NCBI RefSeq assembly: GCF_003334315.1
Contig: NZ_QOWR01000017.1
From: Escherichia coli
GTDB taxonomy: Bacteria; Pseudomonadota; Gammaproteobacteria; Enterobacterales; Enterobacteriaceae
Direction: 5' to 3' (one strand)
DNA length: 64,000 nt
Below the pieces are notes generated by a model. The model saw nothing but the letters and a program-made list of their open reading frames with translations. It was not told the origin of the DNA and searched no databases. Each line of letters starts with the position of its first letter. Positions within the stretch are counted from its first letter, which is position 1. A program made the translations under genes and the position numbers. Shown here piece after piece: positions 29,348-57,823 of this stretch.

Positions 29348-29725
29348 ATGAGAAAAGGATGCTTTGGGCTGGTGTCTCTGGTGTTGTTACTGCTGGTGGG
29401 CTGTCGTTCACATCCGGAAATTCCGGTGAATGATGAGCAATCGCTGGTGATGGAGTCATCTTTATTGGCTGCGGGCATCAGTGCAGAAAAGCCCTTCCTT
29501 TCGACGTCTGATATTCAACCTTCAGCATCCTCAACGCTTTATAACGAAAGGCAAGAACCCGTTACCGTTCATTATCGTTTTTACTGGTATGACGCCAGAG
29601 GGCTGGAGATGCATCCTCTGGAAAGGCCACGCAGCGTTACCATTCCCGCACATTCGGCGGTAACGCTGTACGGCAGCGCCAATTTTCTGGGGGCGCACAA
29701 AGTCAGACTTTATCTATATTTGTAA
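29348..29725 (+). CDS. ycfL: Lipoprotein YcfL
   Basis: 125-aa ORF with lipobox LLVGC. Confidence 0.85.
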   Translation: MRKGCFGLVSLVLLLLVGCRSHPEIPVNDEQSLVMESSLLAAGISAEKPFLSTSDIQPSASSTLYNERQEPVTVHYRFYWYDARGLEMHPLERPRSVTIPAHSAVTLYGSANFLGAHKVRLYLYL

Positions 29726-32786: not shown

Positions 32787-32794
32787 ATGCCCTC

Positions 32795-32915
32795 GTCGCA
32801 TCAGGTAACCTTGCCGGTACCTGATGCGCTCCGAATTCTGTGGGTCGGATAAGGCGTCCACGCCGCATCCGACAGTCGAGCATCAATGCCTGATGCGCTT
32901 CTTATCAGGCCTACC
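32795..32915. repeat. BIME/REP cluster between ycfP and ndh
   Basis: Three REP-like palindromic units (e.g. gtcggataaggcgtccacgccgcatccgac; gcctgatgcgcttcttatcaggc). Confidence 0.75.
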
Positions 32916-33049: not shown

Positions 33050-33185
33050 TTTTGGTATGACCAATGCACCATTCATGTTATTCTCAATAGCGAAGAACAT
33101 TTTCATTGCTGTAACCTGTTGTTAATTAAGAGCTATGTTAATAACCATTAATTAACAATTGGTTAATAAATTTAAGGGGGTCACG

Positions 33186-34499: not shown

Positions 34500-34592
34500 A
34501 CTGGCGGATGTGGCATAAACGCCTCATCCGCCCTGGACAAATGGTACGAGCGGTAGGCCTGATAAGACGCGTTAAGCGTCGCATCAGGCATT
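34500..34592. repeat. REP/BIME elements downstream of ndh
   Basis: ggcggatgtggcataaacgcctcatccgcc and gtaggcctgataagacgcgttaagcgtcgcatcaggcat. Confidence 0.75.
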
Positions 34593-36448: not shown

Positions 36449-36487
36449 GCATTAACCCTCATTAATGCCTGCTACTGCTGATTTTTT

Positions 36488-36521
36488 CCCCGCGACATGC
36501 CGTGTCGCGGGGATTTTTTTT
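36488..36521 (+). terminator. Rho-independent terminator after bhsA
   Basis: ccccgcgacatgccgtgtcgcgggg followed by tttttttt. Confidence 0.85.
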
Positions 36522-46629: not shown

Positions 46630-47469
46630 ATGCTGTCGCGTCGGGGTCATCGGTTAAGTCGTTTTCGTAAAAATAAACGCCGCCTGCGCGAGCGTTTGCG
46701 TCAGCGTATTTTTTTCAGAGATAAAGTGGTGCCGGAAGCAATGGAAAAACCAAGAGTACTCGTACTGACAGGGGCAGGAATTTCTGCGGAATCAGGTATT
46801 CGTACCTTTCGCGCCGCAGATGGCCTGTGGGAAGAACATCGGGTTGAAGATGTGGCAACGCCGGAAGGTTTCGATCGCGATCCTGAACTGGTGCAAGCGT
46901 TTTATAACGCCCGTCGTCGACAGCTGCAGCAGCCAGAAATTCAGCCTAACGCCGCGCATCTTGCGCTGGCTAAACTGCAAGACGCCCTCGGCGATCGCTT
47001 TTTGCTGGTGACGCAGAATATCGACAACCTGCATGAACGCGCAGGTAATACCAATGTGATTCATATGCATGGGGAACTGCTGAAAGTTCGTTGTTCACAA
47101 AGTGGTCAGGTTCTCGACTGGACAGGAGACGTTACCCCAGAAGATAAATGCCATTGTTGCCAGTTTCCGGCACCCTTGCGCCCGCACGTAGTGTGGTTTG
47201 GCGAAATGCCACTCGGCATGGATGAAATTTATATGGCGTTGTCGATGGCCGATATTTTCATTGCCATTGGCACATCCGGGCATGTTTATCCGGCGGCTGG
47301 GTTTGTTCACGAAGCGAAACTGCATGGCGCGCACACCGTGGAACTGAATCTTGAACCGAGTCAGGTTGGTAATGAATTTGCCGAGAAATATTACGGCCCG
47401 GCAAGCCAGGTGGTGCCTGAGTTTGTTGAAAAGTTGCTGAAGGGATTAAAAGCGGGAAGCATTGCCTGA
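46630..47469 (+). CDS. cobB: NAD-dependent protein deacylase CobB (sirtuin), long isoform
   Basis: 279-aa ORF with Arg-rich N-terminal extension, then the sirtuin core ([10 protein letters not shown]...). Confidence 0.94.
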
Positions 47470-47560
47470 TGCACTACGCTTATCAGGCCTGCAAGGGGAC
47501 GCAATTAATTGAATTTGCGGGTTTTGTGGGCCGGATAAGGCGTTCGCGCCCCATCCGGCA
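47464..47560. repeat. REP/BIME elements downstream of cobB
   Basis: gcctgatgcactacgcttatcaggcct and gggccggataaggcgttcgcgccccatccggca. Confidence 0.75.
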
Positions 47561-52952: not shown

Positions 52953-54182
52953 ATGGATAAACTACTTGAGCGATTTTTGAACTACGTGTCTCTGGATACC
53001 CAATCAAAAGCAGGGGTGAGACAGGTTCCCAGCACGGAAGGCCAATGGAAGTTATTGCATCTGCTGAAAGAGCAGCTCGAAGAAATGGGGCTTATCAATG
53101 TGACCTTAAGTGAGAAGGGCACTTTGATGGCGACGTTACCGGCTAACGTCCCTGGCGATATCCCGGCGATTGGCTTTATTTCTCATGTGGATACCTCACC
53201 GGATTGCAGCGGCAAAAATGTTAATCCGCAAATTGTTGAAAACTATCGCGGTGGCGATATTGCGCTGGGTATCGGCGATGAAGTTTTATCACCGGTTATG
53301 TTCCCGGTGCTGCATCAGCTACTGGGTCAGACGTTGATTACCACCGATGGTAAAACCTTGTTAGGTGCCGATGACAAAGCCGGTATTGCAGAAATCATGA
53401 CCGCGCTGGCGGTATTGCAACAGAAAAACATTCCGCATGGTGATATTCGCGTCGCCTTTACCCCGGATGAAGAAGTGGGCAAAGGGGCGAAACATTTTGA
53501 TGTTGATGCCTTCGATGCCCGCTGGGCTTACACTGTTGACGGTGGTGGCGTAGGCGAACTGGAGTTTGAAAACTTCAACGCTGCATCGGTCAATATCAAA
53601 ATTGTCGGTAACAATGTTCATCCGGGCACGGCGAAAGGAGTGATGGTAAATGCGCTGTCGCTGGCGGCACGTATTCATGCGGAAGTTCCGGCGGATGAAA
53701 GCCCGGAAATGACAGAAGGCTATGAAGGTTTCTATCATCTGGCGAGCATGAAAGGCACCGTTGAACGGGCCGATATGCACTACATCATCCGTGATTTCGA
53801 CCGTAAACAGTTTGAAGCGCGTAAACGTAAAATGATGGAGATCGCCAAAAAAGTGGGCAAAGGGTTACATCCTGATTGCTACATTGAATTGGTGATTGAA
53901 GACAGTTACTACAATATGCGCGAGAAAGTGGTTGAGCATCCGCATATTCTCGATATCGCCCAGCAGGCGATGCGTGACTGCGATATTGAACCGGAACTGA
54001 AACCGATCCGCGGTGGTACCGACGGCGCGCAGTTGTCGTTTATGGGATTACCGTGCCCGAACCTGTTCACTGGCGGTTACAACTATCATGGTAAGCATGA
54101 GTTTGTGACTCTGGAAGGTATGGAAAAAGCGGTGCAGGTGATCGTCCGTATTGCCGAGTTAACGGCGCAACGGAAGTCGTGA
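52953..54182 (+). CDS. pepT: Peptidase T (tripeptide aminopeptidase)
   Basis: ORF 52911..54182; start taken at [18 protein letters not shown] (408 aa); M20 family. Confidence 0.94.
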
Positions 54183-54193
54183 TTGCCCGATGC

Positions 54194-54286
54194 GTATGTG
54201 GACTGCCAATTACCGGGATGAAACCGTTATATTGACACTGGTCCACATACTTATCGTGCCTACAGGCGTTCAGTGCATGTAGGCAC
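54194..54286. repeat. Nested inverted repeats between convergent pepT and roxA (probable bidirectional terminator region)
   Basis: 10-bp perfect inverted repeat gtatgtggac (54194-54203) / gtccacatac (54241-54250), then hairpin gtgcctaca-N13-tgtaggcac (54256-54286). Confidence 0.55.
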
Positions 54287-54327
54287 GATAAGGCGCAATC
54301 AGCGCCACATCCGGCTTAAATCCAAAC

Positions 54328-55449
54328 TTACCCTTCGAAGAACCAGTATCCGCTATTGACCAACGCCGCGAGCATTGCGAGGAATGACGGATCTTCCAGC
54401 GCATCGCCAAAATTCTCCGCGGTCAGCGCAATGTTGCTGGCGAGTGCATCCAGTGCCGGACGGTGCGGGGAATCGATCTTCTCACCATTGGCATACACGT
54501 CGTCGCCAATGCGCAATACGCGCAGACCACCCAGGCGCACCAGCACATCACCTTGTTTCAGCGCATCGTAGATTTCATCTGGCTGATAAGGCGGTTCCGG
54601 CGGCGCGATATCCAGTTCATGACGTGACTGGGATATAAACTCGCCAAACCATTGCTTAAAGTGTTCCGGCTGGTTGATCAATTCGAGCATCATCTCACGC
54701 AGTTTATCCATTTCTTGCGGCAGAACGTCCGCAGGATGAGCGCGAGGTGGAACATCCGGATCGCTGTAGTAGTTGCCGCCCAGTTCACGTTGCAGCACAT
54801 AATCGGCAAATCCGCTAATTAATTCCCGCGTATTTGGCGCGCGAAAACCCACGGAATAGTTCATCGCATTTTCCAGCGCGTAGCCTTCATGCGGGAATCC
54901 TGGCGGAATATAAAGAATATCGCCAGGCTCCAGCTCTTCATCGATGATGGCTTCGAACGGATCGACCTGTAACAGATCCGGGTGTGGGCAGTGCTGTTTC
55001 ATTTGCAGCTTTTCGCCCACTCGCCAGCGACGACGTCCGGTACCCTGAATGATAAACACGTCGTACTGATCGAGATGCGGGCCGACGCCGCCGCCAGGTA
55101 CAGAAAAAGAGATCATCAGATCATCAATACGCCAGTCCGGTAGTTCACGGAACGGTCGCATCAGCGCGGCGGTCGGCTCATGCCAGTGATTTACTGCTTG
55201 CACTAACAATGACCAGTTAGTTTCACCGAGATGATCGTAGCTTTCGAACGGACCGTGGCTGACCTGCCATTTGCCATCCTGGTGACTGACCAGTCGACTG
55301 TCGACTTCGCTTTCCATCGCCAGACCCGCCAACTCGTCTGGAGAGATCGGGTCAATAAAATTATTAAAGCCGCGTTTTAACACCACCGGGCGTTTCTGCC
55401 AGTGACGTTCAAGAAAATCGGGCCAGTTAAGAGTGAGTTGGTATTCCAT
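54328..55449 (-). CDS. roxA: Ribosomal protein uL16 arginine hydroxylase RoxA (YcfD), JmjC/cupin
   Basis: ORF 54328..55458; start taken at MEYQLTLNWPDFLERHW (373 aa). Confidence 0.92.
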   Translation of the reverse strand: MEYQLTLNWPDFLERHWQKRPVVLKRGFNNFIDPISPDELAGLAMESEVDSRLVSHQDGKWQVSHGPFESYDHLGETNWSLLVQAVNHWHEPTAALMRPFRELPDWRIDDLMISFSVPGGGVGPHLDQYDVFIIQGTGRRRWRVGEKLQMKQHCPHPDLLQVDPFEAIIDEELEPGDILYIPPGFPHEGYALENAMNYSVGFRAPNTRELISGFADYVLQRELGGNYYSDPDVPPRAHPADVLPQEMDKLREMMLELINQPEHFKQWFGEFISQSRHELDIAPPEPPYQPDEIYDALKQGDVLVRLGGLRVLRIGDDVYANGEKIDSPHRPALDALASNIALTAENFGDALEDPSFLAMLAALVNSGYWFFEG

Positions 55450-55524
55450 GTTAAGCATCCACAGGCTGGTATCTGCAACCGATTATAACGGATGCTTAAC
55501 GTAATGCGTGAAGTATGGACATAT

Positions 55525-57733: not shown

Positions 57734-57823
57734 AGCGGGGAGGGGAGGTAAAGTGAAAAAATAAAAAGCGGATAATCTTAATAAGCAGGCCGGACAGCAT
57801 CGCCATCCGGCACTGATACGAGT

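Follow-up and report, generated by a model that had tools for sequence, protein, structure and literature searches.

The spacer between the convergent genes pepT and roxA is most probably an atypical and partly decayed BIME, in which a z1-like and a y-like REP unit are arranged tail to tail, with a likely role in protecting the 3' ends of the flanking messages. The window, i.e. the whole stretch of Escherichia coli DNA that was analysed, comprises 64,000 nucleotides, and within it the element spans 54184-54316, wider than the 54194-54286 delimited by the first-pass annotation. pepT (+) and roxA (-) are separated by a spacer of 145 bp (pepT ending at 54182, roxA at 54328). The element starts 2 nt past the pepT stop codon and the head of its right unit lies 12 nt past the roxA stop codon on the minus strand. 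The 301 bp around the site are 100 % identical to E. coli strain CP53, and the parts of the locus are listed in Table 1. We found no paper in the literature that mentions pepT, ycfD and REP together.

Table 1. Features of the pepT–roxA locus, in window coordinates
Feature	Position	Strand	Basis or remark
pepT (peptidase T) CDS	52953..54182	+	RefSeq annotation of the 100 %-identical CP53 (1230 nt); short-allele alignment
Unit A head, inverted (iREP) orientation, TGCCCGATGCG	54184..54194	+	1 mismatch (10/11) against the REP head consensus
X, 55-nt single-copy hairpin: TATGTGGAC, 37-nt loop, GTCCACATA	54195..54249	.	Holds the first inverted repeat
Unit A tail, CTTATCGTGCCTAC, including CTAC (complement of the REP GTAG tag)	54250..54263	+	12/14 against the consensus
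Tail-to-tail linker, 15 nt between CTAC and GTAG	54264..54278	.	Central 13 nt (54265-54277) form the loop of the 15-bp palindrome
REP unit B, y-like, GTAG-GCACGATAAGGCGC-AATCA-GCGCCACATCCGGC	54279..54316	+	Match of covariance model R1
roxA (ycfD), ribosomal protein L16 arginine hydroxylase	54328..55449	-	CP53 RefSeq annotation (1122 nt); ORF list

REPs are defined by a GTAG tag, an imperfect palindrome of 29-37 nt and an AA/GC bulge, and BIMEs, for which BIME-1 and BIME-2 types have been defined, are inverse REP pairs with a linker (PMC3333891, PMC8266576). The GTAG tetranucleotide is conserved 5' of the palindrome foot and BIME loci vary between strains (PMC3333891); the palindrome is also described as imperfect, 30-40 nt long and with an AA/GC mismatch bulge (PMC8266576). 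The presence of a REP-like unit, as proposed in the first-pass annotation, was confirmed for unit B by covariance model R1, which was built from 21 other REPs, the pepT–roxA locus being no part of its training set. The match is full-length (26.3 bits, E=3.4e-6) and well below the 42-56 bits that canonical REPs reach with this model; the nhmmer score of the unit is 16.9 bits. The spacer was also compared with canonical REPs of the window at 1751, 13029, 32840, 32887, 34553, 47463 and 47526. Unit B carries the GTAG tag at 54279-54282 (+), 5' of the palindrome foot, and it is an imperfect palindrome of 38 nt, within the range of 30-40 nt and with a bulge. Most carriers have GATAAGGCGC...GCGCCGCATC here, and the unit in the window has GCGCCACATC, with a bulge that reads AA/AC and is still unpaired. 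Its lower stem contains two extra mismatches (GCACGAT vs ATCCGGC) and is weakened by a CG-to-AC change. Because of these mismatches the activity of TnpA_REP (RAYT) on unit B is uncertain, and its status as a substrate for the REP transposase may be lost.

Unit A (54184-54263) carries the CTAC form of the tag, at 54260-54263, as well as head and tail sequences close to the family consensus. Matches to the head consensus TGCCKGATGCG occur 19 times in the window against 4.0 expected, and matches to the tail consensus CTTATCCGGCCTAC 9 times against 0.25 expected, both units being among these matches. The head of unit A, TTGCCCGATGCG, recurs without change as the z1-like iREP head at 1685-1696 of the window. 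X, with its 55 nt, brings the length of the unit to 80 nt and occupies the apex, where z1 REPs have a loop of 3 to 6 nt. X folds with -21.7 kcal/mol on the plus strand and -25.1 on the minus strand, its terminal inverted repeats extending over about 10 bp and then 7 bp beyond a 3-nt bulge. Unit A is not a compact palindrome of 29-37 nt, and the covariance model, run with filters off, gave no match to it; with X deleted in silico there was still no match by the covariance model or by nhmmer. Since profile detection failed, the assignment of unit A as a REP rests on half-site matches and position. By these marks the left unit appears to be a z1-like inverted REP whose apical loop has been replaced by X, and X itself, judging from published work on REPs, seems to have no detectable function of its own and to drift at about the neutral rate.

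This arrangement accounts for every nested repeat listed in the first-pass annotation. The first of these, GTATGTGGAC (54194-54203) with GTCCACATAC (54241-54250), is indeed a perfect 10-bp complement with its arms 37 nt apart, and the claimed extension to 16 bp with 2 mismatches holds, the mismatches being adjacent (GC vs TT). This 16-bp stem is the REP stem with the conserved AA/GC bulge, with the X stem stacked above it. The second hairpin is present where it had been placed, but its arm length needs correction, as the stem is really a perfect 15 bp (CTTATCGTGCCTACA at 54250-54264 and TGTAGGCACGATAAG at 54278-54292) around a 13-nt loop. Since units A and B are inverted copies of each other, their tails pair perfectly over 15 bp and their heads pair as well; X and the apex of unit B are side branches of this A-B pairing. 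The resulting four-way fold of the 145-nt spacer has a minimum free energy of -65.2 kcal/mol (+) and -72.5 kcal/mol (-), with z-scores of -7.7 and -8.4 against shuffled sequences. The two units folded separately give -46.2 and -49.8 kcal/mol, so the four-way fold is better by 19 to 23 kcal/mol than two separate REP hairpins. The central palindrome folds with -28.5 and -27.6 kcal/mol (z of about -8).

About 4.3 perfect 10-bp inverted repeats with a loop of at most 60 nt are expected by chance in 64 kb (Markov simulation), and 9 distinct sites occur in the window; the first repeat alone is therefore weak evidence. The 15-bp palindrome is the sole perfect inverted repeat of at least 12 bp in the window, with 0.37 expected at 12 bp and 0 at 15 bp. 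A chance origin is excluded for this palindrome, and also by the match to the REP model. Short-looped perfect inverted repeats of 10-11 bp are also located at 14780-14805, 21470-21529, 29632-29668, 33119-33158, 36487-36513 and 55450-55500, the last at the start of roxA and the end of phoQ, and sites of this length are about twice as frequent in the window as expected by chance.

The segment is single-copy and repetition is limited to its REP building blocks. Of 5426 complete E. coli genomes, 1268 contain the 115-bp core, at a single place per genome and with no match elsewhere, and a distant search with X alone (E<=10) returned the same 1268 loci. Among the 72,556 plasmids of PLSDB, X occurs in four Escherichia records only; these (NZ_OL790696.1 of 4.8 Mb, CP099174.1 of 1.3 Mb, CP061267.1 and NZ_CP010135.1) are filed as plasmids and are apparently mislabelled chromosomal sequence with the pepT–roxA locus. 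No match to X was found in 50,697 phages, and no second or partial copy among 80 enterobacterial pepT loci. The conserved core of X, searched against 241 million metagenome records, was found on 16 contigs, all of them at the pepT–roxA locus. A dispersed repeat was thus rejected, there being a single locus across E. coli genomes, plasmids, phages and metagenomes. The 10-bp repeat with its 37-nt spacer, proposed as a small repeat element, is strictly single-copy, which is the copy-number half of the outcome that the first-pass annotation had itself set against that proposal. Nor does the label 'unclassified' fit, as what is repeated here is of the REP/BIME family, which is well classified.

Within this family, the layout of the element (iREP...CTAC, 15 nt, GTAG...REP, tail to tail) is that of a BIME, although it corresponds to neither of the two types. 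BIME-1 elements combine z1 and y units across a long L linker, often with an IHF site, whereas the linker here has only 15 nt, and no WATCAANNNNTTR-like IHF site was seen by eye in the linker or in X. BIME-2 elements combine z2 and y units across a short S linker and are usually tandem, whereas the left unit here is z1-like and there is one pair only. A population of near-identical inverted doublets within each genome, as would mark a REPIN, was not found, the 115-bp segment having a median of one place per genome. Of the properties of a MITE (dispersed copies, terminal inverted repeats and a target-site duplication), X lacks the dispersed copies, occurring at a single locus, and its TA/TA flanks are ambiguous. 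The GC-rich hairpin followed by a U-tract that makes an intrinsic terminator is absent from this allele and present in the allele of K-12.

The window also contains two BIME-1-like pairs, at 1685-1785 and 47463-47560, each with a z1-like iREP, a linker of about 33 nt (AATCGCAATTTATCGATTTTGCG and CGCAATTAATTGAATTTGCG) and a y REP. We take these two linkers to resemble the IHF-binding L motif, and the 15-nt linker of the pepT–roxA element is unrelated to them. Further REP clusters were located with the REP model at 13029-13103, 32790-32914, 34502-34590 and 57785-57812, among them weak or partial units at 34502-34536 (19.0 bits) and 57785-57812 (18.7 bits).

The element belongs to a long allele of the pepT–roxA spacer that is carried by about 23 % of the complete E. 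coli genomes, about 77 % being without the element. A short allele with a spacer of 48 bp is found in most E. coli, K-12 MG1655, CFT073 and O157:H7 among them. It forms a perfect 11-bp hairpin, GGATGCGGCA-TGTGA-TGCCGCATCC (positions 280-304 of the K-12 MG1655 locus, L007), which is followed on the roxA strand by CTTTTCGCTT, giving a terminator-like site. The remark in the first-pass annotation that the site has more structure than a bidirectional terminator needs is well founded, as one simple hairpin stands at this position in most E. coli, K-12 included. No terminator-like site was found on either strand of the long allele between 53700 and 54800, and because this allele is without the K-12-type site, roxA may not be terminated in the same way in all E. 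coli lineages. The long allele was found in, among others, O26, O103:H2, O111:H8 and O113:H21 strains, which we take to be phylogroup B1, and the long allele thus seems to be linked to the B1 lineage.

The replacement extends into pepT. The last pepT codon falls within it, and the long-allele protein is one codon longer than that of K-12, with the end ...QRKS-TGA (window 54177-54182) against ...QRK-TAA in K-12-type strains. An origin of the short allele by clean deletion from the long one was ruled out, as about 125 nt, including the last pepT codon, are replaced by about 25 nt.

Outgroups, drawn from a scan of genome collections with the PepT C-terminus, place this polymorphism further back. 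In E. albertii, where pepT ends in ...QRKL-TGA, unit A, X and the central palindrome are present and the head of unit B is lost; identity to E. coli is 91.5 % for X and about 90 % for the spacer. The long allele is one form of an old, trans-specific polymorphism of E. coli and E. albertii, and from these alignments X appears to be older than the split of the two species, or to have passed between them in the distant past. A canonical y REP, in the position orthologous to unit B, is all that Escherichia sp. MOD1-EC7003 has, and the short allele is found in E. whittamii and Escherichia sp. E1V33. In Citrobacter spp. and Salmonella diarizonae, two canonical REPs stand tail to tail at the site with about 12-16 nt from CTAC to GTAG. 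As a REP pair at the same site is common to Escherichia, Citrobacter and Salmonella, the layout is suggested to be old.

Other changes at the site were seen in these outgroups. In Salmonella diarizonae (L029, about 2105-2217) and Citrobacter amalonaticus (L025, about 2105-2200) a complete z2 iREP is joined to an incomplete REP head (TGCCGGATGGCGC or TGCCGGATGGTG), which suggests that REP-into-REP rearrangements recur at the pepT–roxA site. In Citrobacter amalonaticus AUH_CA_2023_1 (L015), a single REP-like hairpin past position 2091 is not followed by the conserved roxA 3' end that all other loci have, and synteny may be broken there.

Comparison of the alleles also bears on whether the structure is selected as RNA. 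The case for a cis-acting structured RNA under selection, or for a small RNA derived from the 3' UTR, with a specific function over and above that of REPs in general, would draw on the very low folding energy (z near -8 on both strands) and on the arms of the central palindrome, of which 30 of 30 nt are identical between E. coli and E. albertii in surroundings that differ by about 10 %; simple arithmetic (0.9^30) puts this at about 0.04. It would also draw on the two tails, which depart from the REP consensus in complementary fashion (CCGG to CGTG and CCGG to CACG). Tails that are perfectly complementary and yet off the family consensus would suggest concerted evolution of the inverted repeats; however, gene conversion between them explains the match as well as selection does. 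Searched at E<=10, the spacer matched no Rfam family. On the minimum-free-energy structure, no pair was changed on both sides among 8 distinct sequences, which are closely related and too few to say more. Natural E. coli haplotypes break the stems without compensation, by GTCAACATAC in X, GCACC in the unit B apex and CACATCC in the unit B head. The copy of strain HS-01 (L088, 151-259) has, in addition, several private 1-nt deletions within the 115 bp, which are probably sequencing errors.

The divergence of X between E. coli and E. albertii is about equal to that of its flanks, and the inner 7-bp stem of X has not been conserved in E. albertii. A selected RNA would moreover have to be reconciled with the many E. 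coli that are without the element, with the missing unit B head of E. albertii, and with the want of a promoter-like site or terminator to make a discrete RNA: no promoter was found in the spacer, the TTGACA inside X having no -10 partner at 16-18 nt. The suggestion of a structured RNA thus received no positive support from Rfam, from two-sided pair changes or from the natural variants, and we regard such an RNA as very unlikely. A small protein is less likely still. An uninterrupted ATG-to-TAG frame of 30 codons does run directly after pepT (54190-54282, +), yet no Shine-Dalgarno-like sequence precedes it and it lies within strong secondary structure. We rejected this frame because it is broken in E. 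albertii, where a 1-nt insertion inside X shifts it and changes the whole sequence past codon 11.

The origin of X is a separate matter, and an answer to it would be compatible with a BIME. X could be the relic of a small mobile element, a MITE or an IS footprint, that inserted into a REP at its apical loop, the TA flanking TGTGGAC...GTCCACA being its target-site duplication. The position of X coincides exactly with the apex of a z1-like REP; removal of X leaves TTGCCCGATGCG-TA-CTTATCGTGCCTAC, with the length and layout of a z1 REP; the ends of X are the inverted repeats described above, and TA stands on both sides. REPs are documented as targets of insertion (PMC1525189). Nevertheless the searches in genomes, plasmids, phages, pepT loci and metagenomes recovered no second or partial X. 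TA is self-complementary, so that TA...TA may equally be a 2-bp extension of the stem, and 55 nt is very small for a MITE. As the relic of an IS end, X was rejected, no similarity of at least 19 nt being found elsewhere in the 5426 E. coli genomes or the 72,556 plasmids. On this balance a mobile origin of X seems unlikely. A bolder proposal, which we rate as improbable, is that X is the sole survivor of an extinct miniature element that entered the REP loop by a TA-duplicating insertion before the split of E. coli and E. albertii, and that the resulting 145-nt 3' UTR of three hairpins is a lineage-specific regulator. If it were true, this 3' UTR would replace the intrinsic terminator that roxA has in K-12-type strains and could change pepT and roxA expression or convergent read-through in about 23 % of E. 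coli.

For the decayed BIME that we favour, the most likely role would be that of a two-sided 3'-end protector of the convergent mRNAs. Transcribed from either side, it would give very stable stem-loops free of a U-tract, which would stop 3'-to-5' exonucleases and thereby set and protect the 3' ends of both messages, termination itself being left to Rho further downstream. In this arrangement X would be no more than a passenger. According to a passage of PMC12306157 that reports Liang, Rudd and Deutscher (2015), ribosomes stall at REPs that are separated from a stop codon by fewer than 16 nt, and translation is reduced. With distances of 2 nt from the pepT stop and 12 nt from the roxA stop, the structure may likewise stall terminating ribosomes and lower expression of both genes, so that some damping of PepT and RoxA synthesis is possible.

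The conspicuous nested palindromes are then a decayed REP pair, neither a new repeat family nor a new RNA, and carry little import beyond annotation, though a REP split at its apex by a unique hairpin is a modest point of interest. About a quarter of E. coli have, in place of a simple terminator hairpin, a U-tract-free structure that is larger by 100 bp. The long and short forms make a natural allele pair with which the effects of REPs on 3'-end formation, convergent read-through and stop-proximal ribosome stalling can be tested.

Compared with known systems, the element resembles the REPs and BIMEs of E. coli in its GTAG/CTAC tags, its imperfect palindromes with an AA/GC bulge and its extragenic position after the stops of convergent genes, and it shares with BIMEs the two inverse units, the short linker and the strain-variable locus. 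Unlike the REPs of E. coli, unit A is interrupted by a unique hairpin of 55 nt and was missed by the profile searches, and both units carry the CGTG/CACG change in the lower stem; unlike the BIMEs, a z1-like and a y-like unit joined by 15 nt form neither BIME-1 nor BIME-2, and the pair is single and non-tandem. As the element is absent from K-12, it is not among the REPs catalogued there. It is similar to REPINs, which are mobilised by RAYT/TnpA_REP, in being an inverted REP doublet whose heads and tails pair into a composite hairpin more stable than two separate REP hairpins, but its 115-bp unit has one copy per genome and nothing points to recent mobility. IS1397 and ISKpn1 are insertion sequences that target REP loops, and Correia elements are TA-duplicating MITEs; X recalls such elements in its place at a REP apex, its short inverted repeats at the ends and its flanking TA dinucleotides, and differs from them in having no transposase, no other copy and no similarity to IS ends in E. 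coli genomes and plasmids. The K-12-type terminator likewise stands between pepT and roxA, shares the right flank GCCGCATCCGGCTTAAATCC with the element and, like it, forms a hairpin stable on both strands. The K-12-type hairpin, however, is a perfect 11 bp (-20 kcal/mol) with a T-run on the roxA strand, whereas the long allele is 100 bp longer and stacks three hairpins with no T-run.
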